Positions 18,695 to 42,010 of a stretch of DNA of 64,000 nucleotides are shown in pieces. The notes beneath the pieces were generated by a model that searched no databases, was not told the origin of the DNA, and saw only the letters and a program-made list of their open reading frames with translations. The stretch covers positions 161,433-225,432 of the forward strand of contig NZ_JAIQDD010000010.1 of assembly GCF_020036995.1 (NCBI RefSeq), written 5' to 3'. Numbering within the stretch: the stretch's first letter is position 1; each line of letters begins with the position of its first letter. The translations under genes were made by a program, and so were the position numbers. The stretch is from Corallococcus sp. AS-1-12. Lineage in GTDB: Bacteria; Myxococcota; Myxococcia; Myxococcales; Myxococcaceae.

Positions 18695-19716
18695 CGAATG
18701 CCTTTGGTTCTGGATGTTATAGCCCGGTCATGCGATCCGACCTGGCAGAACGCTGGCTCACACCCGATGGTCAGCGCCGGCGCGAGCGCTTGATCGCCTC
18801 GGGATTTCAAGGACCCTGGCGTGAAGTCCTCAAGGGCTTTCCGGGAGCAGATGCATTGGGACCCCACGTGGGGGATCTCCGAGGCATCGACCTCGCTCAG
18901 GAAGAGCTACCGGGCGCGGAGTTCGTTCATGTTCGGCTCGATGGCGCCCGCCTGGATGACTGCGGGCTCAACGAGGCGCGGCTCGACTTCACCACGCTGT
19001 CTGGTGCCTCGCTGACCTGGGCGCGCATGGAGCGCGCCAGCCTGATGGCTTGCGCCGCGATGGCCACGTGCTGGGACGATGCTTCCTTGGAAGGGGCAGT
19101 CCTCACGGCTTCAAACCTGGTTCACGGCTCATTCCGTCGCGCCCGACTTCAGGGCGCCCGTTTGACCGCAGCGACGTTGATGAAGGCGGACCTGCGCTGC
19201 GCTGATCTCCGAGGCGCGGAGTTGTCCTTCTGTGACATGGAGGAAGCGTGCGTCGCGGGTGTTCGCACGGATCGGCCTCGCACCTATGGGCGGGCAGGGC
19301 TGGGCAATGCGGACGTGAGCTATTACCGGGATCATGGCGGGTACCCATCATTCATGGATGCCATCCTGCTCGACCCGGGTATGCGCGCGCTCCGATGGTT
19401 GGACAGGAAGGAAATCCTGATGCATGTGGAAGCAGCGGTCGAGATGAGCCCCGCGGTGGATGCTGAAATCCTCGCGCTCCTCCTGGATCCAGAATTTGAG
19501 GCAGCGGCGCGCTTACGACTCGAGGCCCCGGATGAGCTGCGGTACGAGGCTGCCTCCAGCCTCATGTGGGCTCTTGGCTTGGATCAAAGCAAGAATGTGT
19601 GGGGACGCTCAGGGGTGTCGATTTGTCAGCGCTGGATGGCAAACCTCCGCAAGAACATGGCCGCCAGCATCCAAAAACGCTGGCGGCGGGCCGAGGTGTC
19701 CGTCTATTCGGCGTAG
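18679..19716 (+). CDS. Pentapeptide-repeat protein
   Basis: Runs of A(D/N)L.x pentapeptides (ARLDDCGLNEARLDFTTLSGASLTWARMERASLMAC...ADLRCADLRGAELSFCDMEEAC). An alternative ATG start is at 18730. Confidence 0.6.
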   Translation: MRGGSSNAFGSGCYSPVMRSDLAERWLTPDGQRRRERLIASGFQGPWREVLKGFPGADALGPHVGDLRGIDLAQEELPGAEFVHVRLDGARLDDCGLNEARLDFTTLSGASLTWARMERASLMACAAMATCWDDASLEGAVLTASNLVHGSFRRARLQGARLTAATLMKADLRCADLRGAELSFCDMEEACVAGVRTDRPRTYGRAGLGNADVSYYRDHGGYPSFMDAILLDPGMRALRWLDRKEILMHVEAAVEMSPAVDAEILALLLDPEFEAAARLRLEAPDELRYEAASSLMWALGLDQSKNVWGRSGVSICQRWMANLRKNMAASIQKRWRRAEVSVYSA

Positions 19717-20363
19717 TATGTGGTGATCTGGAGGGCCAAGGAGAGCAACGCACCGGAACTCGTGAACTCCACGACGCCACGGTCAATGTCGGCTCGGGTC
19801 ATCTGATACTGCGCAGACGCAATCGGGTCGTCAAAGAGGGTGTCAACGTCAATGACGGTGAACTGGATGGGGGCCGAAAGCAGATCGGTACTCAGGACGT
19901 CGCATGCCCCCTGCGTCCACGTAGGGGTGAAGCTTTCAACTTCCTCCGAAGGGGGCGCAGGCTGTGCGTTGGGACAGGACAGCTTGACCACGACATCCGG
20001 TGGCGAGCCATCTACGTCCCAGTCACTGTTGTCAGCAGGATCCTGCGGAGCGATCGTGGCGCGCAGGGGCTGGATCTTCGTGCGAATGGTGGGAGTGTAG
20101 CACTGTTGCTGTGACGGATGGCAGATGGTCCCGGTCGCGCACTTCGCGCATTTGGTGCCGGTAACACCGCACGCGTCGTTGGTACGAACTTCGACGCACT
20201 GGTTCGTGGTCGGATCGCAGCAGCCTGCACAATTCGCTGCAGTACAGATTTCTTCGAGTGGCGGGTTCTCCGTGATGGGGCCTGAGCTTGAGTCTTCGGG
20301 CCCACAGCCTGATAGCAAGAGAATCGACGTCAGCCCAAGAAGAATTCGGTTTTTGAATGTCAT
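19704..20363 (-). CDS. Cys-rich secreted lipoprotein, paralogue B
   Basis: Lipobox LSGC. A Cys-rich N-terminal region. Shares DWDVDGSPPDVVVKLSCP and the ...TPTIRTKIQPLRATIA block with 15014-15634. Visibly lower GC than paralogue A. Confidence 0.6.
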   Translation of the reverse strand: MTFKNRILLGLTSILLLSGCGPEDSSSGPITENPPLEEICTAANCAGCCDPTTNQCVEVRTNDACGVTGTKCAKCATGTICHPSQQQCYTPTIRTKIQPLRATIAPQDPADNSDWDVDGSPPDVVVKLSCPNAQPAPPSEEVESFTPTWTQGACDVLSTDLLSAPIQFTVIDVDTLFDDPIASAQYQMTRADIDRGVVEFTSSGALLSLALQITTYYAE

Positions 20364-20369
20364 TGATTG

Positions 20370-22097
20370 TTAGTTGAGGTGGAGAACCAACACGCGGGTG
20401 CCTTTGTCCATGCGAACTTCAGCGGTGACCATCCGAGTCACAGGAATGCTCGCGACCTGCGCCCTTCTGTTGCTGGGCGTGGGCGTGATGACGATGGGCG
20501 CAGGGTTCGGATACCCCAGGGCCGTGATGGTTGGGGCATCCGCGTAGCCCACGAGGTACAGGGATCCATCCGAGAGCGCGCGATGAAGCTCAATCCCCTC
20601 CTGGATGGGGCCATAGATGGGTGTGTCCGCGCTGTAGGTGGGAACGGTGCTCATCGGTACAAACGCGTAGCGTCCCCTGGGAAGCTGCGAGACGCGAGCC
20701 CCACGCTCGGCGTCCGAAGCGGCGACGACCTGATGCTGCTGGCGAACGTTTCTGAGCGTGCTCGCGAGTGCCGGGACCGGAGCAGCCGTCGGGGGCTGCG
20801 GCTGGACAGGTCTCAGATTGCGCGGAGTCTGAACGACAAAGACGTCATTGTTGACGCTTTTGCTCGGGGATGGCCAGACCGCTGCCACGCCGCCAGCAAT
20901 CAGCGCGGCAGCAGCAAACAGCAGGATTCTCTTGGAGCCTGATTTCGAAGGGCTGCCTGTGCCGTCCGTCTTCGGAGCGGACCGGGAAACGGAACGATCC
21001 GAAGCGGAAGGCACAGGCTCGGGTGGCTTCGCCGCACTTGAGTGGGGCGAGGTCGCCGGCCCAGGGGCTCTGGTGGCCGAGGCGATTGGGATGGATGGCG
21101 ACGGTGGCTGTCGGACTGTGCTTGGAGGGGGCGACTGCGGGGCAACGGATGCGCCAAAGTGTTGACGCAGTTCAGGGAAGAATTTGTGGCAATCGATTCC
21201 GCCATAACAACGAAGCCCTTTGTTGCCTCGTAAATTGGCAACCCTGCTGAAGAGCGTCGGATTGCAGGCCTCGATTACAGCGTCATTCTTCTCGTAGAAA
21301 CCCCAGAGGATGTCGACATCCTTGTGTCTGTCGACGTCAATCGCCGCGAGTGTCTGGGTGAAGACATCGTCCCATCCGCCGTATCCGATAACGACAAGTG
21401 TGTGGCTTTGAAGGATCTGGATCAGCTCCGCAGAGACGAGTTTGCGCTCGCGACCAAGCTGGATGCCAGTGTGCAACGTAGGCGAGTCATGCCAGTAGCC
21501 GTGAAGGTGGATGATGTGCGTGGATTTGGAAGAGGAAGGAACCGTCTGCCCGAACGGGCTGTCGTGAGTCACGATCGTGCGATGGAAATCACCGCCAGCC
21601 ACCTTCACCGATGCTGAGATGAGGGGATCAAAATTCGTGGTCAAGACGGGGCCAAACGTATCGGCTCTCTCCACCAGCAATCTTCCGAGATGCTCCGTCG
21701 CCGGAGGTAAGGCCCATCCGCCATAATCCAGATCCAGTTCGTCGTCAGTCGCTACTCCATCGCGTTGGCGGTCCACCCGTGCGCGAAGCACAGCCTCTCG
21801 AACAACCTTCTCGGAGACTTTCTTGTCCTCAAGGCCTTGCACGAAATGCATGGCCCATTGGTATCTGTTCTCTTTGGTGTGCTCGCGCTCCGTGTCGAAT
21901 CTCGCCTTGAATCCGGTCGGGACGTGCTCGCGGATGAGATCCAGCATCGCCTCTACCCCAGGCACCTGGGGGGCGTCGGCTCGTTCCTGCGTCGACAAGG
22001 GGGAACCGACCAGAAACGCGATTTTCCGGCTTTTGGCGGCAGTGATGACAGCGTTGGGGAGAGCATCCTTGGGATGCAGGAACGAATAGGAACTCAT
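20370..22097 (-). CDS. SIR2_2-family (defence-type SIR2/NADase-like) protein with a Pro-rich linker, one TM helix and a ~190-aa extracytoplasmic C-terminal domain
   Basis: Motifs IAFLVGSPLS, VLTTNFDPLIS, IIHLHGYW and LVVIGYGGWDDVF match the SIR2_2 signature blocks. TM helix KRILLFAAAALIAGGVAAVW. GC is much lower than the window average. Confidence 0.75.
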   Translation of the reverse strand: MSSYSFLHPKDALPNAVITAAKSRKIAFLVGSPLSTQERADAPQVPGVEAMLDLIREHVPTGFKARFDTEREHTKENRYQWAMHFVQGLEDKKVSEKVVREAVLRARVDRQRDGVATDDELDLDYGGWALPPATEHLGRLLVERADTFGPVLTTNFDPLISASVKVAGGDFHRTIVTHDSPFGQTVPSSSKSTHIIHLHGYWHDSPTLHTGIQLGRERKLVSAELIQILQSHTLVVIGYGGWDDVFTQTLAAIDVDRHKDVDILWGFYEKNDAVIEACNPTLFSRVANLRGNKGLRCYGGIDCHKFFPELRQHFGASVAPQSPPPSTVRQPPSPSIPIASATRAPGPATSPHSSAAKPPEPVPSASDRSVSRSAPKTDGTGSPSKSGSKRILLFAAAALIAGGVAAVWPSPSKSVNNDVFVVQTPRNLRPVQPQPPTAAPVPALASTLRNVRQQHQVVAASDAERGARVSQLPRGRYAFVPMSTVPTYSADTPIYGPIQEGIELHRALSDGSLYLVGYADAPTITALGYPNPAPIVITPTPSNRRAQVASIPVTRMVTAEVRMDKGTRVLVLHLN

Positions 22098-22136
22098 CGA
22101 GGGCGAACGCTATCAGAACCGCAGGCGGGGCCTAAT

Positions 22137-23702
22137 TCATGCGGCTCGCTCACTTGGTCGACCTTGTTCCTCCTCTTGGAGTGCCAATGTCTTCCGGTAT
22201 TCCGCAGCCTCGGCCGCCCGGGTCAGTTCAAACTCACCGTGATGCTTGCGGACTGCCTCCGCGATCTCATCCAGGCCGACGCGGAAGAACTCCTTTCGCT
22301 CATTGATGCGGTTGACTCGCCGGTTCGCGAAGGCCTTGTGCAGGGCGTTCTCCAGGGCAGGGGCGTCCGAGGTCCGGATGATGGCGTGGACATCGAACTC
22401 GAACGGCACCGAGGCATCTCCAAGTTCATCGATGCGGTCCTGGGGGACCAATCGTCGGGTCATCCCCAGCTTGAACACGCCCTCGCCGAAGGAACCAATA
22501 TTGGAGATGACGTAGACGTGCCCGGTGCGGGTGAGCTGTGCCTGGGAGATGGCGCGCTGCTTCTCCATGTCTTCTGCCACACGGCGCTCCAGCTCCGCGA
22601 TGCGCTCCATCAGCTTCTGCTGCTCCGAGCCCTTCGCCTGCTCGTAGTCCGCCCGCGCCTTGGCCAGCGCTTCTGCATCGCGCTTCGCTTCGCGCTCCGC
22701 TTCCAGCTTCGCCTTCTCCAACTCGCGTTGGGCGGCTTCCTCCTCACGCATCTGCTCCCGGATCCGGCGCTGCTCGTCACGCTCCTGCTGCACCTTCTCC
22801 TCGTACTCGTACGCGAGCATCAGCTCCTCGACCTTGAGCTTGACGTAGCGCCTGGCGATGACGCACTGCTGGATCTCCGCGAGACCATTGATGGCGGCGG
22901 CTGCCTTCTCGATGCGCGTCTCCATGGCCTTGACGTTCTTGTAGGACACCTTCGCTACACACGCGTCCGCCTCGCCATTGAAGGCCCGGAGCATCAGCTT
23001 CAAGGTCCGCTCAATCTGCTTCTTGCCTTCCGCCTTGCTTCCATTCACTTCCCACTGAATGGAGCACGTGGCGGCTTCCTTGTTCTTCAGCATCTGCTTC
23101 TGAGCGTCGCGGATCTTCTCCAGCCGGTCCTCGTACTCCTTGACCGACGCCAGCGCGTACACCGGTTTGTAGAAGCCGAAGGAGAGCAGGACCTCCTCTT
23201 CCTCCAGTGCCTTCAACTCGGCCCTCAGGCGGGCGATGCCTGACTCCAGGTTGGTCCGCTCAGCGTTCGCCTGCTTTCGACGGGCTTCTGCCTCCTCCAT
23301 GGCGCGCGTCGCGCTTTGCGTCGTCCGGCTCGTCTCTTCGCGGAGCCGGTTCAACTCCGCTTTCGCTCGGCCCTGCTCAGCGGCGATGGCCTGCTCAACG
23401 TCCGCTTTTGCCCGGGCAAGCTCGGTCTCTACCCGCTTCCGCTCCGCCGCCAGTGCACTGTCCGCTTCGCTCCGTGCCTTCGCCAAATCGTCCTGGACCC
23501 GCTTCTGTTCCGCGGCCATCGCGGTGGTCGCGTCCGTGCGGGCCCGCGTCAACTCCTCCGCGACCCGGCGCCGTTCGGCCTCCAGGTCCAGGATGGGCTT
23601 GAATCGTTCCTGGACGGCTTTGAGCCGGCTCTGTGTCCGCAGCCACAAGCCAAGGAGCAACAGGCCCAGAATGCCCAGGCCAATGGCGATGATCGTTGTC
23701 AT
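22137..23702 (-). CDS. Membrane-anchored coiled-coil / DUF4041 / T5orf172 (MUG113, GIY-YIG-like nuclease) protein
   Basis: Start at the internal ATG (MTTIIAIGLGILGLLLLGLWL = N-terminal TM helix), 13 nt after the upstream stop. It has ~180 aa of coiled coil, a DUF4041 block (LLSFGFYKPVYALASVKEYE...LRAFNGEADACVAKVSYKNV) and a T5orf172 block (GHVYVISNIGSFGEGVFKLGMTRRLVPQDRIDELGDASVPFEFDVHAIIRT...RINERKEFFRV). Confidence 0.75.
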   Translation of the reverse strand: MTTIIAIGLGILGLLLLGLWLRTQSRLKAVQERFKPILDLEAERRRVAEELTRARTDATTAMAAEQKRVQDDLAKARSEADSALAAERKRVETELARAKADVEQAIAAEQGRAKAELNRLREETSRTTQSATRAMEEAEARRKQANAERTNLESGIARLRAELKALEEEEVLLSFGFYKPVYALASVKEYEDRLEKIRDAQKQMLKNKEAATCSIQWEVNGSKAEGKKQIERTLKLMLRAFNGEADACVAKVSYKNVKAMETRIEKAAAAINGLAEIQQCVIARRYVKLKVEELMLAYEYEEKVQQERDEQRRIREQMREEEAAQRELEKAKLEAEREAKRDAEALAKARADYEQAKGSEQQKLMERIAELERRVAEDMEKQRAISQAQLTRTGHVYVISNIGSFGEGVFKLGMTRRLVPQDRIDELGDASVPFEFDVHAIIRTSDAPALENALHKAFANRRVNRINERKEFFRVGLDEIAEAVRKHHGEFELTRAAEAAEYRKTLALQEEEQGRPSERAA

Positions 23703-23715
23703 GGATGTCTCCTGT

Positions 23716-26700
23716 TCAGGCGCTGACGGCCCGCATCTGATGCTCCACCGGGGACTCTTCACGCACGACGGCTGGCAGCTCAGCCGCCTCCTCCCGAAGG
23801 AGCTCCTCGACGCGCGCGACGATCCGGGCGACCTCTTCTGAAGGCGAGCGGAACCAGTCCGTGGACCAGATGCGGTGAAGCTTCCACCCCAGGCCCTTCA
23901 ACACCTGGTCCCGGAGCCGGTCCCGGTCCCGCGCGGAACGCGACGAGTGGTACCGCTCGCCGTCACACTCGACACCGAGGATGTACCGGCCTGGTTGCTG
24001 GGGATGCCGGAGGGCCATGTCGATGAAGTAGCCCGCAACGCCTACCTGCGGAACCACCTCGAAGCCCCGCGCCGCGAGCGCCTTCGCGACGGCGATTTCG
24101 AAGTCGGAATCCGGTGGACGGCCGCTCCCCACGCCGTGCGCCACCTTCTCTCCCTTGGCTTCGGACAGGTACCGTTGCAGGACGCGCATCCCACGGGGAC
24201 TGCTCTCCTGGACCTTGAGCTGTGACGGGTCGAAGGACGCGAACACCGTCAGTGCACACCGCGCCCTCGTGAAGAGGACGTTCAACCGGCGGTATCCGTC
24301 CGCCTGGTTGATGGGCCCGAAGTTCATCCGGAAGCGCTCGTTCTTGTCGGGACCGAACGTGACCGACACGAAGATGGCGTCGCGCTCGTCGCCTTGCACG
24401 TTCTCCAGGTTCTTCACGTCGAAGGGCATGGGTGACTTCTCCCACTTCGCCAGGAAGGCTCGGAGGGTCGCGTCGTTCTTCTCCTCGGCAGTCACCAGGT
24501 CGTCGATGAGATCCCGCTGCTTCGAATTCAGCGTGACGACCAGCAGGCTCTGCTCAGGACGTGTCCGCGCGTGCTCCTTCACCTTCGCCAGCACTTCGCG
24601 GGCTTCGGGGACGTTTCGGTTGGACTCGTACAGTCCTCCGTCCACTTTGTGGAAGCGCAGCCCCAAACCTTCCAGTTGCTCACCCGGTGCAGGGAAGGTG
24701 ATGAGGTCGCCGTTGTAGAACTCACGATTGCTGAAGGCGATGAGCGAGGGGTGACGTGAACGGTAATGCCAGCGCAGCATGCGCATGGGGAACCGCTCCG
24801 CCGCCGCCGTGAGGATGCTCTCTGAATCCTCCAGGAAGGACGGGCCCTGAGCCTCGTCTCCCGCCTCGTCGTTGGACTCTGTGTCCTCCTGTTCCATCTG
24901 GGCGAAGAAGCTGGTGGGAGGGAGTTGCTCCGGGTCGCCCACTACCACCAACTGTCTCCCTCGCGCGATGGCGCCCAGCGCATCTTCGGGACGCATCTGG
25001 CTGGCCTCGTCCATCACGACCAGGTCGAAGGTCAACTGGCCGGCGGGCAGGTACTGGGCGACCGACTGCGGACCCATCATGAAACACGGCATCAGCGTCT
25101 GGAGCGCACTGCCGGCACGGGCGACCAGTTCACGAATGGGGAGGTGCCGCTGCTTCTTTCCCAACTCGTGCCGCAGAAGATGGGTCTCCGTCATACCCGC
25201 CACTTTCGCCGAGGACACACCCGGAGGAACCGGACGCTGGCTGAGTTGACGTGCCAGGTATCGGCCCTGCCTTTCGATGCAATGCGTGTCCAGGCGTGCG
25301 AACTCCTCTCTCTGGGAGGCATGAACGGCGCCCGTGAACTGGTCGAGCTCGGGTTGGTCTCGCAGGATGGCTTCCGCCAGGGAGCGGAAGAAGACAGCGT
25401 CGAAGGCCGCGACCAGCCGTTCCGGCTCCAGGCCCGGACGTGTGTCGACGCGCTCCAGGAACCCAGCGGTGCTCCGCGCTCGCGCGACGGCACGCCGCTG
25501 CCGTTGATACGCGCACCAGGCTGGAAGCGTCGCGGACTGGCTTCGGGCCTGGCGCAGTCGCAAGACCGTCGATTGGAGCGGCTTCTCGGCGGCGAGATCC
25601 TCCCAGGTGCCCTGGGCCATCCTTCCCAGCTCCCGGGCTTGGGTTGCGGACTGTCTGTAGGCACTGAGGGCTGTCTCCAATTCGTTCGTGATGGCGAGCA
25701 GGTCCGCGTGCCTTCGTGGCGTGTCCTCTCGTAGCAGCCACTCCGCCAGCCCTTCAGGGAGCGGCGCCGCGAGGAGGTCATCAACATGTCGGAGGATGCT
25801 TCGGGGACCCGCTAGGGAGGTTTTCCGCCCCTGGTAGGCCACCCCTGGCAGGGTCGCCGCGGAAGCGTGCGCTTCCAGCCGGTCTGCGGCTTCGCACGCT
25901 TCACGCACCCGGCGCAGTTGTCCCTGGAGTTGGGAGAGGGTCAGGGACGGCGGGGCATCTCCCTTCCGTGCCCAGTTCAGGACCTGGCTCAGGTGCTTCA
26001 GCAGGGCGTCGAGGCTGTCCTGGGCCTTTCCGCAGGACTCGGTGTTCCAGGGGGCGCTCGGCAGCCCCATGCGCGTCGAGGCTTCTTGCACGAAAGTGCT
26101 TACGTCTCGGACTTGGGACAGTTCTTCGCTCTTCGCGCGGACCATCGCCAGGATCTCGCGCCAATGGCTCGGGGAACGCTCCAACACTGCTCGGCGTAGC
26201 TCCAAACCTCGCTCACCCATGGGGAGGATCAATGCGTCGATGTTCCGGTATGCGTCCAACCACGAAAGGATTCGGTCGAAGCGTGTCTCGACCCCCTGGA
26301 AGCGGGCGCCAAGGGTCGCTTTCAAGGTCGCGTCCTCCTGGAACCGCTCCCGTGCCGCGTAATGAGCCAGCAGGTCGTTGTAGCCCTGAACCAGTACGGG
26401 CCTTGTTGGACGTACGCCATGTGCCATGGCCTGGAAGTCCCGCCGCGCGGCGCGCCAAGCGCTCGAGAGCCAGGGGATGAATTGCGCGGTTGAAACCGCA
26501 ACCGCATGGGACTTGAGCGTCGCGAGGGGAGGAACGAGTTCGGGCATGAAGCGCACCGCGAGCGCCCGTGCCTGATCTTTCAATTCCGTACAGGTGCTGT
26601 CAGCCTTCCGAAGTGTCTCCTCGGCTTCGCGTTCGATCCAGCACGGGTCCCGCCACTCCAAAGTGGTGTCGTCCAGGGCGGCCATCGCCTCGACGACGCG

Positions 26701-28914
26701 GGCGAAAGACTGGAGCTGCTGGGGCGTCCAGCGCGTGACGTCGACTTCCAGGCGGGAGGCCACGTCGGCCGCGAACCGGCGAGCCTGCGCCAGGATTCGA
26801 GCAGCGGCCTCCACCGCTTCATGCGCGCGCGTCAGTGTCACGAGCGTGGTGTCAGGCGAGAGCAGACGCAGGGCCATGTCGAGGACGGCTTCCGCGCCGC
26901 GCAGCGCGGACGCGGTCAGGTCTTCCTGGGCACGCCAGCCTGCCTCCAACCCCGCCCACCGGGCCTGGACCGCTTCAATGGCATCAAGCAGGGCTCGTAA
27001 TCCCTCTCTCTGCGTGGAATCGAGCAGGGCAGGGACCAGCGTCGCGGGAGTCCCTTCTGGAAGCCGTGGCAGGACTCGGACGTTGGAGATCAGCGCATCC
27101 ACCGCGAGTGCGCTCGAGCTGGGCGTGACGCCCGTGCGGACGGTGAAGGCCGCCAGCGCCTTCTCCAGGAGCAGCGCGGACTCCTCCCAGGTGGCGATAC
27201 GCTGAACGAGTGTCTGACGGTCCTTGTCGGTCAGCGCATCGTTCGTCACACCCGCCCAGGGGTGGGCACTGAGGATGGGCGCGACGCGGCGAACATCCCC
27301 AAGCTGCGCCGCGAGACTCCGAACCGCGTCGCGAACCTCCGATAGCGCATGGGTAGACATGCCTTCGGCGCCCTCGAAGCGGAGGCCTTCCAGCTCCACG
27401 ACCGCGTCTCCCAGTTCCGATTCCGCGCGACTGACCTTCCAGAACACGTCATGCGGTGACATGCCGAGTGTCCCGAACGGCTTGTGCATTCGCTCGGTAT
27501 GCGCGCGCAGGATGCCCGCCGCGTTCGAGACCTGTTCGGTGAGCGGGCGGGGAGCGGTCGCGCTCGCATCCAGGTTGAGTCGGCGACGCAGGTCCTCCAT
27601 GAACTGCTGTTTCTGGGTCTTGTGGCTGTGCAACTCCAGGCAGAACTCGCCGAGCCCCGCATGCTGGAGGCGGCGTGAGACGACCTCCAACGCCGCCAAC
27701 TTCTGCGTGACGAACAGCACGGTCTTGCCCGCCGCCAACGCCGCGCCAATGAGGTTGGTGATGGTCTGTGATTTCCCGGTGCCGGGCGGCCCTTGCACCA
27801 CCAGATTCTCGCCCCGGAGCACGTCCACCAACACGCTGTGCTGGCTGCTGTCCGCGTCCGTGATGAGTGGCGGCGGATTGACCTCTTGCGAGTCCAAATC
27901 GTAGACCTCGCTCCGGCGCTCCCGGCTGCCCCCGCCACCTCCGCCAGGTTCGTTCGCCTCCGCCTGTCCTCCCATCAGCGTCCGGACGAGCGGGTTCGCC
28001 AGCATGGGACTGTTCTGAGGCCAGCGGCTGGGCTCCAGGTCCCGCCACATCAGGAGCCGCCCGAAGGACAGGAGCGTCAGGGTCACCTGCCGCTCCAGGC
28101 TCCAGCCAGGGCGCAGGCCTTTGAGCAGCGCCGTCACCTTGTCGAAGTACGCCTCCAGGCCCTCCTCCGCGGAGAAGGCCGGCAGCGTGATGCCGAACTC
28201 CTGCCGCAGCTTCTCCTGGAGCGTGAGGTTCGAGTCGATGGACTCGCCTTCATTGTAGTCCACCTCGTAGGAGTGGACCTGCGTCTCCGGGTGGGCCTGG
28301 CCGCGTTTGAGACTCACCGGCATGAGCACGAGTGGAGCGCTGCGAGGCTTCTCCTGCCGCGTGTCGCCGGACTCGTACCAGCGCAGGAACCCGAAGACGA
28401 AGTGGAGCAGATTGGCCCCGGTCTCCTGGATGGCCGTTTGCGCGAGGCCCTGGAGTCGGTGCAGGTGGCTCTCCAGATCTTCCGGGAAGTACAACGTCTG
28501 GAGGTGGCGGTCCTGGTGCTTGCGAGGATTGCTGCCGCTCTCTGCCGGGACCGCCTTGGGCAGCTCATACCGGGTATCGATGCCGAGCTTCTTCGCCTGT
28601 TGAAGCAGCAACTTCTGCCGGGCGTCCTTGCTTGGGGCCTCCTCCGTCGTCATCGAAAACACCACCGTCGCGGCGGCGGGATCGAAGTCCTCCTCTTCCT
28701 CGGAGGCTTGCTCCGGTGGCATCACTGGAAGGAACGTGAGCGCGCGGTGGTTGCTCAGGCGCTCGAAGACGACACCTGGCAGTTCATCCACAATGCGCAG
28801 CGACGTCCGGGCCGTGTGCTTGAAGTTGAGGAGTCGGTTGGTTGCGCTCAAATCCAGCAACCGGGTGCGTTGCCGCTGAAGCTCTTTCAGCAGGACCGAG
28901 TCGTGCGGATTCAT
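23716..28914 (-). CDS. Giant DUF4011 / Upf1-like SF1 helicase (AAA_11+AAA_12) / Vsr-like (DUF559, PD-(D/E)xK) endonuclease / DUF3320 protein (Hhe-like)
   Basis: Start at the internal ATG (MNPHDSVLLKEL...). Walker A GPPGTGKSQT, DEAD-like VVMDEASQ, LRWHYRSRHPSLIAFSNREFYNGDL, and C-terminal YILGVECDGERYHSSRSARDRDRLRDQVLKGLGWKLHRIWSTDWF (Vsr/DUF559 signature). 1733 aa. Confidence 0.8.
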   Translation of the reverse strand: MNPHDSVLLKELQRQRTRLLDLSATNRLLNFKHTARTSLRIVDELPGVVFERLSNHRALTFLPVMPPEQASEEEEDFDPAAATVVFSMTTEEAPSKDARQKLLLQQAKKLGIDTRYELPKAVPAESGSNPRKHQDRHLQTLYFPEDLESHLHRLQGLAQTAIQETGANLLHFVFGFLRWYESGDTRQEKPRSAPLVLMPVSLKRGQAHPETQVHSYEVDYNEGESIDSNLTLQEKLRQEFGITLPAFSAEEGLEAYFDKVTALLKGLRPGWSLERQVTLTLLSFGRLLMWRDLEPSRWPQNSPMLANPLVRTLMGGQAEANEPGGGGGGSRERRSEVYDLDSQEVNPPPLITDADSSQHSVLVDVLRGENLVVQGPPGTGKSQTITNLIGAALAAGKTVLFVTQKLAALEVVSRRLQHAGLGEFCLELHSHKTQKQQFMEDLRRRLNLDASATAPRPLTEQVSNAAGILRAHTERMHKPFGTLGMSPHDVFWKVSRAESELGDAVVELEGLRFEGAEGMSTHALSEVRDAVRSLAAQLGDVRRVAPILSAHPWAGVTNDALTDKDRQTLVQRIATWEESALLLEKALAAFTVRTGVTPSSSALAVDALISNVRVLPRLPEGTPATLVPALLDSTQREGLRALLDAIEAVQARWAGLEAGWRAQEDLTASALRGAEAVLDMALRLLSPDTTLVTLTRAHEAVEAAARILAQARRFAADVASRLEVDVTRWTPQQLQSFARVVEAMAALDDTTLEWRDPCWIEREAEETLRKADSTCTELKDQARALAVRFMPELVPPLATLKSHAVAVSTAQFIPWLSSAWRAARRDFQAMAHGVRPTRPVLVQGYNDLLAHYAARERFQEDATLKATLGARFQGVETRFDRILSWLDAYRNIDALILPMGERGLELRRAVLERSPSHWREILAMVRAKSEELSQVRDVSTFVQEASTRMGLPSAPWNTESCGKAQDSLDALLKHLSQVLNWARKGDAPPSLTLSQLQGQLRRVREACEAADRLEAHASAATLPGVAYQGRKTSLAGPRSILRHVDDLLAAPLPEGLAEWLLREDTPRRHADLLAITNELETALSAYRQSATQARELGRMAQGTWEDLAAEKPLQSTVLRLRQARSQSATLPAWCAYQRQRRAVARARSTAGFLERVDTRPGLEPERLVAAFDAVFFRSLAEAILRDQPELDQFTGAVHASQREEFARLDTHCIERQGRYLARQLSQRPVPPGVSSAKVAGMTETHLLRHELGKKQRHLPIRELVARAGSALQTLMPCFMMGPQSVAQYLPAGQLTFDLVVMDEASQMRPEDALGAIARGRQLVVVGDPEQLPPTSFFAQMEQEDTESNDEAGDEAQGPSFLEDSESILTAAAERFPMRMLRWHYRSRHPSLIAFSNREFYNGDLITFPAPGEQLEGLGLRFHKVDGGLYESNRNVPEAREVLAKVKEHARTRPEQSLLVVTLNSKQRDLIDDLVTAEEKNDATLRAFLAKWEKSPMPFDVKNLENVQGDERDAIFVSVTFGPDKNERFRMNFGPINQADGYRRLNVLFTRARCALTVFASFDPSQLKVQESSPRGMRVLQRYLSEAKGEKVAHGVGSGRPPDSDFEIAVAKALAARGFEVVPQVGVAGYFIDMALRHPQQPGRYILGVECDGERYHSSRSARDRDRLRDQVLKGLGWKLHRIWSTDWFRSPSEEVARIVARVEELLREEAAELPAVVREESPVEHQMRAVSA

Positions 28915-29019
28915 GGAGGTGCCCCCCGGGTCGTCATGGGTGGGACGACCTGGCACCCAGGTTCTGGCGCACTCTTCGCCGCGGTTGCATCCCCCGTGCG
29001 GGTGATTGACACCCGCACG

Positions 29020-29063
29020 AAAACGCCGCCTCGCTTCCGGAGGACCGGAAACGGGCGGCGTTC
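29020..29063 (-). terminator. Rho-independent terminator downstream of the ABC-F gene
   Basis: On the minus strand: GAACGCCGCC...GGCGGCGTTTT, a 9-bp GC stem with an inner CCGG palindrome followed by a T-tract. A second perfect 10-bp hairpin (CGTGCGGGTG-ATTGA-CACCCGCACG, 28996-29020) follows immediately. Confidence 0.6.
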
Positions 29064-29088
29064 GCACTGCCTCGTCTTGCTGTGCCGA

Positions 29089-32093
<3,005 letters not shown>

Positions 32094-35815: not shown

Positions 35816-37570
35816 TCAGCCCCCCGTCACGGGGATGAACTCCACGCGGCGGTTCGCGCTGCGGCCCTCCGGCGTCTCGTTGGACACGCGCGGACGGTCG
35901 GGGCCGTAGCCCTTCGCCTCCAGCCGCGAGCCCGCGATGCCCTTCTGGATGAGGTACGCGCGCACGCGGTTCGCGCGCTGGTGGCTCAGCGTGCGGTTGG
36001 CCTCCTCCGGGCCGCTGTTGTCCGTGTGGCCTTCGATCCGGACCTTCAGCTTCGGGTTCGCCTTCAGGTAGGCCACGATGTCATCCAGTTGCTGCTGCTC
36101 GTTCTCCTGGAACTCCGACTGGTTCACCGGGAACTGGACGATGTGCTCCAGCGGCGACTTCGTCTCCTCCGCGGGCTTCTCCTCGGGAGGCGGCTGGGGC
36201 TTGGGCTCCTCGGGCTTGGGCTGCGGCTTCGCGGGGCAGCCACGCTCGGACGCGGGGCCCGCCTCGTTCGGGCAGGCGTCGTCCTTGTCCGGCACGCCGT
36301 CGCCATCCGTGTCCTTCACCGGGCAGCCGCGCTCGGAAGACGGACCGGCCTCGTTCGGGCAGGCGTCGTCCTTGTCCGGCACGCCGTCACCATCCGTGTC
36401 CTTCACGGGGCAGCCGCGCTCGGAAGACGGACCGGCTTCGTTCGGGCACTGGTCCTCGCGGTCCACCACGCCGTCGCCGTCCGTGTCCTTGTCCGGGCAG
36501 CCGTTGTTCTCCACGGAGCCGGCCTCCAGCGGGCAGCGGTCGTCCTTGTTGGCCACGCCGTCGCCGTCGTCGTCCTCGTTGGGGCACTGCTCCGGCGTGT
36601 GGCTGCGGCCGGTGCGGCAGCGGTCCACGGGCTCGGGCTCGTTCGCGTACGCGATGCCCGCGGCCAGCCGGAACGACGGCGTGCCCGGGATGTCCGTGAA
36701 GCCGTGCCCGCCGAGCGCGAAGGCCTCGAAGCCCGCCCCCACCGGCAGCCGCACGCCGCCCAGCAGCTCCAGCGCCAGGTCCGACTCCACGAGCGACTCG
36801 GCGGCCTGCAGCGCGACTTCGGCGCGCAGCCCCTTGCCGCGCGTGGCCACCACCACGCCCTGCTCCAGCTCCGTGCCGACGTCGCGGCCCGGCTCGACCT
36901 CCTTGGAGCGGATCCGGATGCCCGCGTTGGCGCCCAGCACCACGGGGCCCACTTCGCGGCTGATGGACACGCGGGGCGCGAACTGGAACCCGGCCCAGCC
37001 CGCCTGGCGGCCGAACGCGTCCGCCGTGCCCCCCGGAATCCCGATGTCCAGGCCCAGGCCCAGGAACACCGGCGCGCCTTCCTCGCGCCGCAGCAGCTCG
37101 TAGCGCACGCCCAGCTCCGGCGTGCCCAGGCCGAACGAGTCCGGCTCGCTCACGCCCACCAACTGCTCCGCGCCGTGACCGCCCTGCGCGATGATGACGG
37201 GCAGCTTCGCGGAGAACTCCAACCGGTCCACCGGCGACCACGCGCCGGCCAGCCAGCCCGCGGTGCGGTAGTGGAGGATGGAGCGCTCCAGCCCGTCACT
37301 GCCCTGGAGCAGCAGGATGCCGCGCTCGTAGTTGACCATGAGGAGCAGGCGGTAGCCGCCCTCGGGGAGCACGCGGCCGGTGTCCACCAGCATCGAGTCC
37401 GTCGCCGCTGGCGTGAAGCGCAGGCGCTCCAGGTCCAGCGGCACGAGCGGGCTCGTAGGGGTCTGCGCGAACGCGGCGGGGGTGACGGCGGTGGCCAGCA
37501 GCGCGGCCAGCGCCCAGCTCTTTGCCTTCATACGCAAGGGGAGGTCCATTCGAGAAAAGAGGGAGCGCAT
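35816..37570 (-). CDS. OmpA-family protein with thrombospondin type-3 (Ca-binding) repeats
   Basis: Repeated DTDGDGVPDKDDACPNEAGP units. C-terminal RIEGHTDNSGPEEANRTLSHQRANRVRAYL (OmpA_C). A more likely start is ATG 37531 (MKAKSWALAALLATAVTPAAFA signal peptide). Confidence 0.85.
   Translation of the reverse strand: MRSLFSRMDLPLRMKAKSWALAALLATAVTPAAFAQTPTSPLVPLDLERLRFTPAATDSMLVDTGRVLPEGGYRLLLMVNYERGILLLQGSDGLERSILHYRTAGWLAGAWSPVDRLEFSAKLPVIIAQGGHGAEQLVGVSEPDSFGLGTPELGVRYELLRREEGAPVFLGLGLDIGIPGGTADAFGRQAGWAGFQFAPRVSISREVGPVVLGANAGIRIRSKEVEPGRDVGTELEQGVVVATRGKGLRAEVALQAAESLVESDLALELLGGVRLPVGAGFEAFALGGHGFTDIPGTPSFRLAAGIAYANEPEPVDRCRTGRSHTPEQCPNEDDDGDGVANKDDRCPLEAGSVENNGCPDKDTDGDGVVDREDQCPNEAGPSSERGCPVKDTDGDGVPDKDDACPNEAGPSSERGCPVKDTDGDGVPDKDDACPNEAGPASERGCPAKPQPKPEEPKPQPPPEEKPAEETKSPLEHIVQFPVNQSEFQENEQQQLDDIVAYLKANPKLKVRIEGHTDNSGPEEANRTLSHQRANRVRAYLIQKGIAGSRLEAKGYGPDRPRVSNETPEGRSANRRVEFIPVTGG
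36234..36500. repeat. ~3 tandem 87-bp DNA repeats encoding the 29-aa TSP3 units
   Basis: Near-identical blocks ...cagccgcgctcggaagacggaccggc(c/t)tcgttcgggcaggcgtcgtccttgtccggcacgccgtc(a/g)ccatccgtgtccttcac... are visible three times. Confidence 0.7.
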
Positions 37571-37573
37571 GTC

Positions 37574-40500
37574 TCAGTTCCCCCGGGCCGGGTTCTGACG
37601 GCGACGCGACGTGCCCCAGGCCGCCAGCGCGGCGAGGAGCGCCAGCGCGGACGAGCCGCCGCCGGTGCTGTCGCAGCCACCGCCAGCGATCTCCACGACC
37701 TGCGCCTGGACCCGGACCTGGAACGTGCACTGCGCGGTGTTGCCCGCCTCATCCGTGGCGGTGACGGTGACCTGCGTGGCCCCCGGCGCGAACGCGCTGC
37801 CCGACTCGGGCGAGGACGTCACGGTGGGATTCGCCGTCACCGCGTCCGTGGCCGTGGGCGTGAACGTCACCTGCGTGTCCGGCGCCACCGTGATGTCCGC
37901 GGGGCAGGTGAGGGTGGGCGCGGTGGTGTCCTGCACCGTCACCGTGAACGTACAGGTGAGGCCGGTGGAGGTCGCGGTGACCGTCGTGGTGCCAATGGGG
38001 AAGAGCGCGCCCGACGGCTGCGAGTAGCTCACCGGGAGGCCCGCCGGCTCCAGCACCGCGGGGTCGTAGGTCACGATCGCGCCGTCCGGATCCGTCGCCT
38101 CCACGACGAGGTTCGCGGGGCAGGTGAGGGTGGGGGTCACGACGTCCTCCGTCACGTTGAGGGTGACGGTGGCGACGTTGCTGTCCGTGGCGCAGTCGCG
38201 GACGCGGTACGTGAAGCTGTCCGGGCCCACGTAGCCGGCGGCGGGCGTGTACTCGAGGTTCCCCTGCGCGCTGGTGCCCAGCGTGCCGTGCTGCGGCGGG
38301 GTGACGATCGTCCAGGTCAACACCTGCCCGACGTCCGGATCCGTGCCGGCCAGGGCGAGCGCCGTCGGCGTGTCCTTCTGGATGGTGACCGTCTGGTCCG
38401 CCGCCGTCGGGGGCTGGTTGGCGACGACCGTCACCATGCGGCCGCCGGGGATGGCGTTGGCGAAGACGGAGAGCGCGTAGGTGCCCAGCGGCACGTCGGC
38501 GGGCACGGTCACCGTCGCGCGGGTGTCGGAGGTGTTGCTGCTGGGGAGCGTCCAGAGACGCCCGCCCTCGGCGGCCTGCAGGCGCACCAGCGGGAAGTCG
38601 GTGGGCGAGTCCGCGCTGTTGCCGCCGCTTCCGCCGGAGATGCCCCGGAAGCGCTGGCCCTCCATGACGGTGGGGCAGGCGGCGACGAGGGTCGCCGGGT
38701 TCGTCACCGTGGGCTTCCAGGCGGTCTGGGCCCGGGTGTCGTCATACACCTGCGCGTTGGTGGCCTCCTGACCGCCCGCCAGCAGGACCTCGCCCGAGGA
38801 CAGGGCGACGCTGAACAGGCCTCCCGCCGCAGTGGGGTCCGCGACGTTGATCCACGCGCGGAGGAGGGGGTCATAGACCTCCGCCGTGTTGGCGTAGTCG
38901 CCATTCGTGGTGATGCCGCCCGCGGCCAGCACCTTGCCGGAGGCCATCAGCGTGGCGGTGTGCAGCCAGCGCGGCTGCGAGAGCGCGCCCACGGACGTCC
39001 AGGTGTTGGTGCCGGGCGTGTAGAGCTCCGAGGACGTGAGCTCCGTGCCGCCCGAGATGCCGCCCGCCGCGAGCACCTGGCCCGACGGCAGCAGCGTCAG
39101 CGTCAGCTCGTCCCGCGCGCCCGCGAGGCCCGCCGCCGGGGTCCAGGTGTCGTTGGCGGGGTTGTAGATCTCCGCCGAGGCCAGCGCCGTGCCACCGGCG
39201 TTGTGGCCGCCAGCGACGAGCACCCGGCCGTCATGCAGCAGCACGGCGCGGTGTCCGGCGCGCGCCGCGACGAGCGAGCCCGCCGCGGTCCACGTATTCG
39301 TGTCGGGCGCGTAGAGCTCCGCGCTGCCCAGCACCGTGGTGTTCTGCTGACCGCCGACCACGAGCACGCGGCCATCCGGCAGGAGCGTGGCGGTGTGCAG
39401 GTGGCGCGGGCTCAGCATGTTCTCGGTGGCCAGCCACGTGTTGGTGGTGGGGTCGAAGCGCTGCGCGTTGGGCGTCGAGGTGTTCACGTTGCGGCCACCC
39501 GCGACCAGGACCTGGCCCGAGCGCAGGAGGGTGGCGGTGCCCCGCTCGCGCGGCACGTCGAGGTCGGGCAGGGCGGTCCACGCGTTGCTCGCGCGGTCAT
39601 ACAGCTCCGCCGCGGGAGACGACGTGAAGAGGCCGCGGCCTCCCACGACGAGCACCTGGCCGGAGGGCAGCAGCGCCGCCGCGGAGTCGGTCCGGGGCGT
39701 GCCCATGGTGCCAGCGGGAGACCAGCGGCTCAGGGCGGGGTCGTAGACCTCCGTCTGCGCGAAGAACGTCGTCCCGGGGGTCGTGGAGAATCCGCCCGCT
39801 ATGAACACCTTGCCCGAGGGCAGCAGCGTCGCGGTGTGGTTCTCGCGGCCGACGCCCATGGTGCCGCCGGAGGTCCACGTGCCGGTGGCAGGGTCGTAGA
39901 TCTCGGCCGAGGTCAGCGCCGGCGACCCGAAGACAGAGCCGCCGGTGACGAGCACCCGGCCGTCAGGCAGCAGCGTGGCCATGTGGCCGGCGCGCGCGGA
40001 CGCGAGGCTGCCGGTCGCGGTCCAGGTGTTGGCCGCCGGATCGTAGAGCTCCGACTGGGACGTGGCGCCGCCCGCGGCGAAGCCACCCGCGACGAGCACG
40101 CGGCCGTCGGGGAGCAGGGTGCTGGTGAAGTAGTGCCGGGCCACCAGCGGGGGCGCCGCGGCGGACCAGGTGCCGGTGGCCGGATTGTAGAGGTCGGCGC
40201 CGGACACCTCTCCGCTGCCGCTGAAGCCGCTCACCACGAGCACGCGCCCATCGCGCAGCCGCGTGGCGCTGTGCGCGTTCCGGCCCACGGACATGGAGCC
40301 CGTGGCGGTGAAGGCGTTGGTCGCGGGGTCGTAGAGCTCCGCGGTCGCGAGCCGGACGCCGCCACCACCGGTGCCGCCCGCGATCAGGACCTGTCCCGTG
40401 GCCAGCAGCGTGGCCGTGGGGAGGCTGCGGGTGGAGGCCATGTTGCCCGTGCCGGACCAGGTGTTGGCCACGGGATCATAGATGCGTCCCCCCTGCGAGC

Positions 40501-40873
40501 CGTCGGTCAGCACCAGCACCTTGCCCGAGGGAAGGAGCACGGCCAGGGTGATGTTGCCCGTGAGGCTGGAGGTTCCCGCGGAGGCCCAGGTGTTGGTGGC
40601 GGGATCGTAGGTGTCCGCCGCGCTCACGAAGCCGGTCGTGTTGACGCCGTTGACGACGAGCAGCTTCCCGTTGGGTAGCAGGACGGCCGCGTGTTGCCCG
40701 CGTGGCGTCCCCATGGGAGCGGTGGCGTACCAGGCCGGCGGCGCCGCGAGACGGGCGTGAGCGGCGCGGATGCCCTCGGATGCCGCCGGGCGCTCGTTCC
40801 CGCCGCAGGACAGAAGGCCCAGGCTCGCGGCGAACAACAGGAGCCTGCTCCAGACAGCGCGTTGTGACCGCAT
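37574..40873 (-). CDS. Kelch-repeat beta-propeller protein with HYR/Ig-like domains and a C-terminal MYXO-CTERM sorting signal
   Basis: Lipoprotein-type signal (LGLLSCGG). About 20 Kelch-like blades (...LLPDGRVLVAGG...ELYDPATNTW...). A HYR-like CPANLVVEATDPDGAIVTYD block. C-terminus GGGCDSTGGGSSALALLAALAAWGTSRRR (Cys, hydrophobic stretch, Arg tail). Confidence 0.8.
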   Translation of the reverse strand: MRSQRAVWSRLLLFAASLGLLSCGGNERPAASEGIRAAHARLAAPPAWYATAPMGTPRGQHAAVLLPNGKLLVVNGVNTTGFVSAADTYDPATNTWASAGTSSLTGNITLAVLLPSGKVLVLTDGSQGGRIYDPVANTWSGTGNMASTRSLPTATLLATGQVLIAGGTGGGGVRLATAELYDPATNAFTATGSMSVGRNAHSATRLRDGRVLVVSGFSGSGEVSGADLYNPATGTWSAAAPPLVARHYFTSTLLPDGRVLVAGGFAAGGATSQSELYDPAANTWTATGSLASARAGHMATLLPDGRVLVTGGSVFGSPALTSAEIYDPATGTWTSGGTMGVGRENHTATLLPSGKVFIAGGFSTTPGTTFFAQTEVYDPALSRWSPAGTMGTPRTDSAAALLPSGQVLVVGGRGLFTSSPAAELYDRASNAWTALPDLDVPRERGTATLLRSGQVLVAGGRNVNTSTPNAQRFDPTTNTWLATENMLSPRHLHTATLLPDGRVLVVGGQQNTTVLGSAELYAPDTNTWTAAGSLVAARAGHRAVLLHDGRVLVAGGHNAGGTALASAEIYNPANDTWTPAAGLAGARDELTLTLLPSGQVLAAGGISGGTELTSSELYTPGTNTWTSVGALSQPRWLHTATLMASGKVLAAGGITTNGDYANTAEVYDPLLRAWINVADPTAAGGLFSVALSSGEVLLAGGQEATNAQVYDDTRAQTAWKPTVTNPATLVAACPTVMEGQRFRGISGGSGGNSADSPTDFPLVRLQAAEGGRLWTLPSSNTSDTRATVTVPADVPLGTYALSVFANAIPGGRMVTVVANQPPTAADQTVTIQKDTPTALALAGTDPDVGQVLTWTIVTPPQHGTLGTSAQGNLEYTPAAGYVGPDSFTYRVRDCATDSNVATVTLNVTEDVVTPTLTCPANLVVEATDPDGAIVTYDPAVLEPAGLPVSYSQPSGALFPIGTTTVTATSTGLTCTFTVTVQDTTAPTLTCPADITVAPDTQVTFTPTATDAVTANPTVTSSPESGSAFAPGATQVTVTATDEAGNTAQCTFQVRVQAQVVEIAGGGCDSTGGGSSALALLAALAAWGTSRRRQNPARGN

Positions 40874-41002: not shown

Positions 41003-42010
41003 TTACCCATCACGTGGGTCGTAGACCTTCTCGGGAGGGGCCTCCAGGAAGCGGCGCCACCAGAGACGGGCCTCCTCGTCGGTGTAGCCGTCCCAGGTGT
41101 TGACGTGGGGGAAGGGCAGGAGCCAGGGCTCCAGGAACCGGGCCAGCTCGCGATACGCCGGCAGGGTCTCACCCAGCTTCGTGTCCCCCGCGAGCGGCGC
41201 GGGCCCCAGGCTGATCAGGGCGCGGCCTCCGGTGAGCTCCTGGACGGAGGTCTCCGGATGGCTCAGGTGGGAGCGGAGCGCCTGGAGGCCGCCCACGGTT
41301 TCAAGGAGGGGTGGGCCCAGGAAGTTCAGCCAGTGGATGCCGTCAACCTGGGGGCCCATGTCCATGGACGTTCCTGCCGCGGGCACAGCCCAGCCGGGAT
41401 GGCGGAGCAGGTCCGCCTTGAGCAAGGGAAGGGACTTCCAGAATGCTCTTGATGAGGCGAAGGACAGCCCGGCATGGGCCGTCGAGAACGGGAGGGAGCC
41501 GGCAAGCTCCAGGGCCAGTTCACGCAGCCGTGACGCGCCTTGCTCTTCTAGAAACCGGAGGGGCACGTGGACGCTCAAGACGCTGAGCATTCTTGCGCTG
41601 GGATTGCGCCAGGGCAGCCGGGAGCGATAGCGGAACTCGTAGCCGCTCGAATCGGATTCGTCGCCCGTCAGGCGCACGTTGGCGTCGAACCGTCTCCGGG
41701 TCAGGATGTCGAACCAGAGGGAGTCTCGCGGCAGGTCGTCCAGGAAGTCATCGGTCGGCGCCGCGCCGAGTCGTTCGCGCAGTTCCTCCCAGACGCTTGG
41801 CGTGAGCGGCGAAGGGTCGCCATCCGCGTCCCAGGTGGTGGTCAGCCTTCCGGAGTCTGGCCCCAGGGTTCGAAGGTAGACGTCGAGTGCGTGGACCACC
41901 GAGGCCGCGATCCTGCCGTGGTCGTGAGGCATGAAGAAATCAAAGCCCACCACGGGTTGGACCGTCGGAATGCCGGCGCCAGGAGGTTGCCGAGCCAGCG
42001 GCTCATCCAC
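41003..42010 (-). CDS. Hypothetical cytoplasmic protein, putative immunity partner of the upstream lipoprotein nuclease
   Basis: GTG start overlapping the upstream stop by 8 nt (GTGGATGA). No signal peptide, no recognisable domain. 335 aa. Confidence 0.45.
   Translation of the reverse strand: MDEPLARQPPGAGIPTVQPVVGFDFFMPHDHGRIAASVVHALDVYLRTLGPDSGRLTTTWDADGDPSPLTPSVWEELRERLGAAPTDDFLDDLPRDSLWFDILTRRRFDANVRLTGDESDSSGYEFRYRSRLPWRNPSARMLSVLSVHVPLRFLEEQGASRLRELALELAGSLPFSTAHAGLSFASSRAFWKSLPLLKADLLRHPGWAVPAAGTSMDMGPQVDGIHWLNFLGPPLLETVGGLQALRSHLSHPETSVQELTGGRALISLGPAPLAGDTKLGETLPAYRELARFLEPWLLPFPHVNTWDGYTDEEARLWWRRFLEAPPEKVYDPRDG

Follow-up and report, generated by a model that had tools for sequence, protein, structure and literature searches.

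A Corallococcus homologue of the anti-phage nuclease SNIPE (PD-lambda-1) and an apparent helical-register rule in its stalk

Identification of a SNIPE family member in Corallococcus

We analysed a window of 64,000 nucleotides from Corallococcus sp. AS-1-12 (RefSeq assembly GCF_020036995.1, contig NZ_JAIQDD010000010.1, positions 161,433 to 225,432) and found that the gene at 22137..23702 on the minus strand encodes a homologue of SNIPE. We consider it very likely that this gene is a Corallococcus member of the SNIPE (PD-lambda-1) single-gene anti-phage family and acts as E. coli SNIPE does. PD-lambda-1 emerged from a functional selection in E. coli (Vassallo et al. 2022, PMC9519451), and Saxton et al., Nature 2026 (PMC13190303), gave it the new name SNIPE. 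It is the DUF4041-GIY-YIG membrane nuclease blocking phage genome entry to which an earlier reading of the DNA letters (the original prediction) had referred. The family is already published and can be detected with hidden Markov models (HMMs), and the protein studied here is an ordinary, experimentally uncharacterised member of it, not novel as a kind.

The open reading frame (ORF) list, the translation and the family matches together define a complete coding sequence of 521 amino acids (aa) plus stop, beginning with ATG. A Shine-Dalgarno-like AGGAG (23709..23713, minus strand, read directly) lies 6 nt upstream of the ATG, just after the TGA stop (23716..23718) of the upstream Hhe-like gene; an alternative longer start, GTG at 23762, would give a 47 nt overlap with that gene. 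The GC content at third codon positions (GC3) is 0.81, which fits a coding frame in a genome of ~70% GC. The ORF named in the original prediction was therefore real, and only its strand had been omitted.

Family membership was clear from profile searches. The PADLOC HMMs for PD-Lambda-1 matched with E=2.2e-153 (PDLC03977, aa 91-515 against profile positions 51-478 of 496) and E=1.8e-151 (PDLC03976), and E. coli SNIPE itself scored E=1.2e-198. For a direct comparison, the E. coli SNIPE sequence was recovered by way of two primers in supplementary file 3 of PMC13190303, oDS30 (gene start) and oDS93 (E414A site). Megablast of oDS93 placed the gene in 131 of 5,426 complete E. coli genomes. In E. 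coli 118UI it is a single gene for a 500-aa 'DUF4041 domain-containing protein', located in a lambdoid prophage (NZ_CP032515.1 651619-663678) between the ren/P/O replication genes and nin/rusA/quuD, and the first and last residues of this protein agree with the published cloning primers.

BLASTP aligned the Corallococcus protein (residues 172-515) with E. coli SNIPE (residues 131-479) at 50% identity and 68% positives over 349 aa (E=4e-112). Identity rose along the chain, from 23% in the transmembrane (TM) helix and 18% in the N-terminal stalk to 43% in DUF4041, 48% in the linker helices and 69% in the nuclease, matching the family gradient reported in PMC13190303. The order of parts is the same as in the E. 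coli protein (WP_109866709.1-type, 500 aa), namely N-terminal TM helix, helical stalk, DUF4041, helical linker and GIY-YIG/T5orf172 domain, and the Pfam architectures are equal with an offset of ~37 residues. Both are single-gene systems, and both carry a juxtamembrane R-F...D/N-x-E-x-E motif. The E. coli gene sits in a lambdoid prophage, whereas the present one belongs to a defence hotspot on the chromosome of a myxobacterium with 70% GC.

The family is large: among the representatives of 50%-identity clusters, 4,106 match with an E-value of 1e-3 or lower and 1,444 with one of 1e-30 or lower. Temperate phages also carry homologues of the core; their hosts are Escherichia (one such homologue is annotated 'PD-lambda-1'), Salmonella (ES18 gp19), Klebsiella, Clostridium, Lactobacillus, Streptococcus, Corynebacterium and Synechococcus. 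Two NCBI complete genomes (CP102579.1 and CP172866.1) encode an identical protein, and the nearest named relative, from Corallococcus coralloides, is 96% identical.

DUF4041, linker and nuclease domain

Pfam assigned DUF4041 (PF13250) to aa 235-290 with E=1.4e-20 and full profile coverage (1-56/56), and T5orf172 to aa 394-486 with E=1.7e-17, with MUG113 at E=8.6e-17. Both the DUF4041 and the T5orf172 (GIY-YIG-like) block of the original prediction were thus borne out. PF13250 already bears the label 'SNIPE' in precomputed Pfam labels and in the newer Pfam release.

An AlphaFold2 model was built with a 41-sequence alignment (mean predicted local distance difference test, pLDDT, 78). Taken together, Pfam, the model and the similarity to E. 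coli SNIPE delimit the DUF4041 core at aa 187-290 (22833..23144, minus strand), modelled with pLDDT >90 over aa ~187-282. It is followed by a charged helical linker (22533..22853, minus strand) of two helices, aa 284-355 and 359-390. This second long helical segment between DUF4041 and the nuclease, aa 284-390, had been left out of the original prediction. Four residues which in E. coli SNIPE retarget it to the Bas14 tape measure differ in the Corallococcus protein (W257 to M295, L253 to V291, K305 to A343 and T319 to K357).

The GIY-YIG-type (T5orf172/MUG113) nuclease domain occupies aa 394-488 (22239..22523, minus strand). Structure prediction of the GIY-YIG core, proposed as a check in the original prediction, gave a beta-beta-alpha-beta-alpha-beta-alpha domain over these residues, which contains the three-stranded sheet with flanking helices (beta-beta-alpha-beta-alpha) that characterises the GIY-YIG superfamily. 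Invariant in the 41-sequence alignment were Y397, K411, G413, T415, R416, R417, R423, E451, H455, N464, N467 and E471-F473. The GIY-YIG active-site Tyr, Arg, Glu and Asn would accordingly be represented by Y397, R416/R417/R423, E451 and N464/N467; apart from that of E451, these catalytic roles are putative residue by residue. Y397 (codon 22512..22514, minus strand), which supplies the Tyr of the 'GIY' strand (GHVYV), falls within the first beta strand of the modelled domain. E414 of E. coli SNIPE, located by oDS93 in 'APSLEKKLH', aligned by BLASTP and MAFFT with E451 in 'APALENALH' (codon 22350..22352, minus strand), which is invariant in the 41 homologues. E. coli SNIPE no longer defends once DUF4041 is deleted or the GIY-YIG domain carries E414A, and mutation of E414 also abolishes the toxicity of the nuclease (PMC13190303).

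The second nuclease motif reads V-F-K-L-G-M-T. This (Y/F)-K-(I/L)-G-x-T form with an invariant Lys is of the T5orf172 type, unlike the corresponding motif of Slx1, At-HIGLE, I-TevI, the UvrC N-terminal domain, Eco29kI and PD-T4-3. These nucleases share 13-22% sequence identity with the Corallococcus nuclease domain, and all of them are without TM anchor, stalk and DUF4041. The nuclease comparison gave values of 7.4 for Slx1 (6seh_C), 7.3 for Slx1 (7cq2_A), 7.2 for At-HIGLE (7wme_A), 4.7 for I-TevI, 4.3 for the UvrC N-terminal domain, 4.2 for PD-T4-3, 3.9 for Eco29kI and 3.6 for T4 EndoII. A sequence search of PDB chains returned no match at E up to 1. The PADLOC candidate PDC-S57 also shares the T5orf172 nuclease domain (E=4e-19, aa 392-505), but its match is confined to this domain and extends to neither DUF4041 nor the stalk.

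T5orf172 domains are found in phage homing-endonuclease-like genes and, as described above, core homologues occur in temperate phage genomes, so that the gene might be read as that of a T5orf172/GIY-YIG homing endonuclease, intact or remnant, which is selfish and plays no part in defence. We regard this as very improbable. Thousands of proteins conserve the complete TM-stalk-DUF4041-nuclease architecture, the stalk and juxtamembrane motif are under clear constraint (see below), and no intron or intein accompanies the gene. What the phages carry is the same defence gene, and one of their copies is annotated PD-lambda-1.

Membrane anchor and proposed mode of action

A membrane anchor near the N-terminus, with the bulk of the protein in the cytoplasm, is a mark of the SNIPE family, and 59% of homologues have one TM segment. 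In the Corallococcus protein, the best 19-residue Kyte-Doolittle window (mean 2.47) covers aa 3-21, TIIAIGLGILGLLLLGLWL (23640..23696, minus strand). AlphaFold2 placed a helix at aa 3-32 that spans this segment, and an N-terminal hydrophobic helix is common to 38 of the 41 aligned homologues. There is no Arg or Lys in the two residues before the segment, and there are five within the 15 residues after it. Because of this positive-inside charge pattern, the protein is predicted to be a single-TM, N-out/C-in signal anchor in the inner membrane. E. coli SNIPE likewise resides in the inner membrane, its N-terminus in the periplasm and its body in the cytoplasm (PMC13190303); unlike it, the Corallococcus protein has its TM helix from residue 3 and essentially no periplasmic tail. 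The original prediction had staked its case on a single N-terminal TM helix and on catalytic GIY-YIG residues; a predicted TM helix and conserved GIY-YIG residues, E451 included, were found.

By homology with E. coli SNIPE, we propose the following mode of action. The nuclease would be held at the inner membrane with its body in the cytoplasm, away from the chromosome and auto-inhibited. Once the genome of a tailed phage, most probably of a kind that has a tape measure protein, is being injected through the inner membrane, DUF4041 would bind that protein and the incoming DNA, and the GIY-YIG domain would cut the DNA as it enters. The infected cell would survive, making this direct defence and not abortive infection, and self would be told from non-self by location instead of sequence or modification. 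In E. coli, SNIPE associates with ManYZ and the tape measure protein, labelled lambda DNA is cleaved during, not after, injection, and plasmid transformation is not blocked (PMC13190303). Since transformation was unaffected there, the expectation of the original prediction that the protein acts on incoming DNA at the envelope stands for phage DNA during injection and does not extend to plasmid DNA. Two other systems, Zorya and Kiwa, also act at the inner membrane during phage genome entry (discussion of PMC13190303), but they are multi-protein and built of unrelated components. The Corallococcus protein showed no homology to them, its PADLOC matches being to PD-Lambda-1 and PDC-S57 only.

Without its TM helix, E. 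coli SNIPE binds the nucleoid, makes double-strand breaks in the host chromosome and is toxic (PMC13190303), so the nuclease is not intrinsically phage-specific. The same finding would suit an abortive-infection or toxin-like effector, in which infection frees the nuclease to attack the host chromosome and kill the cell. Full-length E. coli SNIPE, however, defends directly, with cells surviving at a high multiplicity of infection and phage DNA being cleaved during injection (PMC13190303), and the Corallococcus protein keeps the TM anchor and all conserved modules. An abortive effector is therefore quite unlikely in our view, and we favour a membrane-held SNIPE that acts directly on entering phage DNA.

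Several points weigh against assigning the Corallococcus protein the activity of E. coli SNIPE. The mechanism is drawn by homology with the E. coli protein. Its topology is based on hydropathy and the positive-inside rule only. The N-terminal region, which associates with ManYZ in E. coli, is unalignable (18% identity). Position 410 (22473..22475, minus strand), just ahead of the invariant Lys in the second nuclease motif and a candidate for the place of the canonical YIG tyrosine, is Phe, unlike E. coli SNIPE, which has Tyr; since 52 of 119 close homologues have Phe there and 67 have Tyr, F410 is probably tolerated. Co-transcription with neighbouring genes is possible, as the gaps are tight and there is no terminator between the genes. 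The classical myxophages are not known to be siphoviruses. The protection given by E. coli SNIPE is restricted to siphoviruses (PMC13190303). A literature search on myxophage tape measure proteins returned nothing useful. The phages that it targets in myxobacteria may reveal whether a tape measure protein is truly a requirement for attack by SNIPE.

Helical stalk and juxtamembrane motif

Between the membrane anchor and the DUF4041 core, AlphaFold2 predicted a low-confidence, non-helical break at aa 33-40 and then a single continuous helix at aa 41-174 (134 residues; 23181..23582, minus strand), with pLDDT 75-89 over most of its length. This helical stalk contains three 22-residue repeats at aa ~63-128, AAEQKRVQDDLAKARSEADSAL, AAERKRVETELARAKADVEQAI and AAEQGRAKAELNRLREETSRTT. 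Its hydrophobic residues recur with a period of 3.6 (z=10.6 over aa 22-172) and not of 3.5 (z=1.2, p=0.12); over aa 40-130, z reached 13 at 3.67. Across the family, the hydrophobic periodicity peaked at 3.58-3.62 in 64 of 102 sequences. The original prediction had described ~180 aa of heptad-rich coiled coil at this place. A long amphipathic helix is indeed predicted, but the label 'heptad-rich' is wrong because the hydrophobic period is 3.6, and the N-terminal region does not show the 3.5-residue period of a canonical heptad (left-handed) coiled coil. When its first 174 aa were scanned against Pfam with E-values up to 10 allowed, nothing but coiled-coil-type noise below threshold came up, so no FtsB-, PilO- or PspB-like family was recognised there.

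The 41-sequence alignment and motif scans revealed a conserved juxtamembrane motif, RFKPILDLEAE, at aa 33-43 (23574..23606, minus strand). Its consensus over the family reads R-[FY]-x-x-[IV]-x-D-x-[ED]-x-E, and the counterpart in E. coli SNIPE is RFADYFNVEEE (aa 47-57). R33, D39, E43 and R46 are near-invariant in the alignment, and the motif is present in 102 of 122 close homologues and in many distant ones.

Measuring stalk length from this motif to the conserved G-F-Y-K-P at the start of the core, we compared lengths in two sets of sequences. The first comprised the Corallococcus protein, E. coli SNIPE and the 120 closest database matches, of which 102 sequences could be scored. Only 20 distinct lengths occurred, from 52 to 161 (143 in the Corallococcus protein and 88 in E. 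coli SNIPE). For the distinct lengths, the circular resultant peaked at R=0.94 for a period of 3.63-3.64, against 0.13 at 3.5, and none of 5,000 random sets of distinct lengths reached R=0.94. The second set consisted of the 150 best representatives of 50%-identity clusters, with anchors placed by hmmalign and the motif by a position-specific scoring matrix with shuffled controls. Here the best period was 3.63 (R=0.83-0.85 over 41-49 sequences), the distinct lengths gave p at most 0.004 at the pre-specified period of 3.64, and the mean phase of 0.24 turn agreed with that of the first set (0.25). Across the family, stalk length ranged about three-fold, from 52 to ~167 residues.

These data indicate that the stalk varies in length only by whole helical turns (3.63-3.64), conserving the register of the juxtamembrane motif relative to DUF4041 and the nuclease. 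The sequences are related and their counts are not independent events, although the tests used distinct lengths, and slippage of repeat units could contribute to the pattern. Quantisation at a period of 11 or 7 failed, with resultants of 0.07 and 0.03. The motif-to-core distances of 143 (13 x 11) in the Corallococcus protein and 88 (8 x 11) in E. coli SNIPE are both multiples of 11 and both fit the whole-turn rule; the family as a whole falls into several classes modulo 11.

We tentatively propose, with slightly less than even confidence, that the SNIPE stalk is a rigid, phase-locked rod and not a mere variable 'adapter'. If so, the register, and perhaps a stepwise distance between nuclease and membrane (~1.65 nm per 11 residues), would help to keep the enzyme away from the chromosome and to point it towards the injection channel. 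The SNIPE paper describes the N-terminal region only as variable in length and poorly conserved, and the words 'register', 'heptad', 'helical turn' and 'stalk' are absent from its text (PMC13190303). Its authors left open the question of how a non-specific nuclease is restrained at the membrane (PMC13190303). The phase-locked stalk and the juxtamembrane motif would be small, testable additions to what is known of SNIPE and a handle on this restraint.

Tandem Repeats Finder, run on the gene, did not detect the three 22-residue protein repeats as DNA repeats. The sole array that it reported is a separate feature, a 12-bp GC-rich unit at 22667..22712 (GCGCTTCGCTTC, 3.8 copies, plus-strand reading), which lies in the region coding for the E/A/K/R-rich charged linker helix.

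Genomic context

The gene lies in a stretch of lower GC content, ~18-31 kb, with 0.59-0.66 GC compared with ~0.71 in the flanks; the GC3 of the SNIPE gene likewise contrasts with ~0.95 there. On one side the island is flanked by an ABC-F ATPase gene (29089..30687, minus strand) together with Tgt, and on the other by a pentapeptide-repeat gene and a beta-lactamase-family gene. Within it, the SNIPE gene is the second of four minus-strand genes. The first, immediately upstream (23716..28914, ORF open to 29067), encodes a 1,732-aa Hhe-like helicase-nuclease with DUF4011, AAA_11/AAA_12 and MTES_1575/DUF559 domains, which matched PADLOC Hhe with E=5e-285 and PDC-S37 with E=0; a literature search on Hhe/DUF4011 returned nothing useful. 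Downstream lies the gene for a 575-aa SIR2_2 protein (20370..22097, minus strand). In this protein a Pro/Ser-rich linker precedes an internal TM helix at aa 391-409 (Kyte-Doolittle 2.15) and a C-terminal domain of ~165 aa with no family match, and weak PADLOC similarity is confined to the SIR2 domains of pAgo-associated and PDC-S65 proteins. The last gene encodes a 219-aa lipoprotein (19704..20363, minus strand) with an LLSGC lipobox and a Cys-rich N-terminal part; it had no Pfam or PADLOC match.

The locus was then compared with those of relatives. In C. coralloides CP034669.1 the Hhe-SNIPE-SIR2 trio is kept, the three proteins being 93%, 96% and 79% identical to those of the window (96% for SNIPE, 79% for SIR2). 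In C. exercitus a SNIPE homologue of 68% identity directly follows the same ABC-F/Tgt pair (98% and 96% identical), without Hhe or SIR2, and is itself followed by a DUF3800 gene matching the PADLOC candidate PDC-M04A. Myxococcus xanthus, Archangium violaceum and Sorangium carry a solitary SNIPE homologue in unrelated surroundings. The trio was thus found only in the closest relatives and was absent from five other contexts.

The arrangement of the window could point to a composite, co-transcribed and interdependent system of the Hhe-like protein, the SNIPE homologue and the SIR2-like protein, perhaps with the lipoprotein. The intergenic gaps are small (13-14 nt between Hhe and SNIPE, 39 nt between SNIPE and SIR2, 6 nt between SIR2 and the lipoprotein), and no terminator-like hairpin separates the four genes. 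Hairpins do bound the cluster: its only strong terminator-like one, with a 12-bp stem, follows the lipoprotein gene (19660..19687), and another follows the upstream ABC-F gene. The trio is also conserved in C. coralloides. No sigma-70-like promoter was found in 19.5-29.4 kb, a scan that is uninformative for a myxobacterium. Against interdependence stand the C. exercitus copy at the same locus without Hhe or SIR2, the solitary copies in Myxococcus, Archangium and Sorangium, and the unequal divergence of the three proteins from their C. coralloides counterparts. Moreover, Hhe and PD-Lambda-1 are separate single-protein models in PADLOC, and E. coli SNIPE works as a single cloned gene (PMC13190303). 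We therefore consider a composite system unlikely. Because relatives carry the SNIPE homologue alone, the gene is most likely autonomous, and the region ~18700..29070, with ABC-F/Tgt at one end and the beta-lactamase/GST/BrkB genes at the other, is best regarded as a Corallococcus defence hotspot, variable in content and made up of independent systems.

The comparison with C. exercitus also bears on a housekeeping role. Two homologues are named 'chromosome segregation ATPase' in their source annotations, and long charged helices would suit an SMC-like protein. The Corallococcus protein, however, has no Walker A motif and no ATPase family match; the distribution of the gene is patchy, it lies in a low-GC variable locus, and its identity between species is 68% against 96-98% for the flanking genes. 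An SMC-like housekeeping function is the least probable of the readings and, in our estimate, close to negligible. For a SNIPE homologue, the same figures document an allele that turns over at a defence hotspot on the chromosome of a predatory myxobacterium with 70% GC, beside an Hhe-like and a membrane-spanning SIR2-like protein.

Elsewhere in the window, all on the minus strand, we noted a gene at 41003..42010 that matches Pfam TsiV, a type VI secretion immunity protein for VRR-NUC effectors (E=1.9e-45), and is adjoined on the same strand by an ORF at 42003..42920. A gene at 37574..40873 encodes a 1,099-aa protein with many Kelch repeats and Big_9, cadherin-like and HYR domains, and is adjoined by a gene for an OmpA/TSP_3 protein at 35816..37570.

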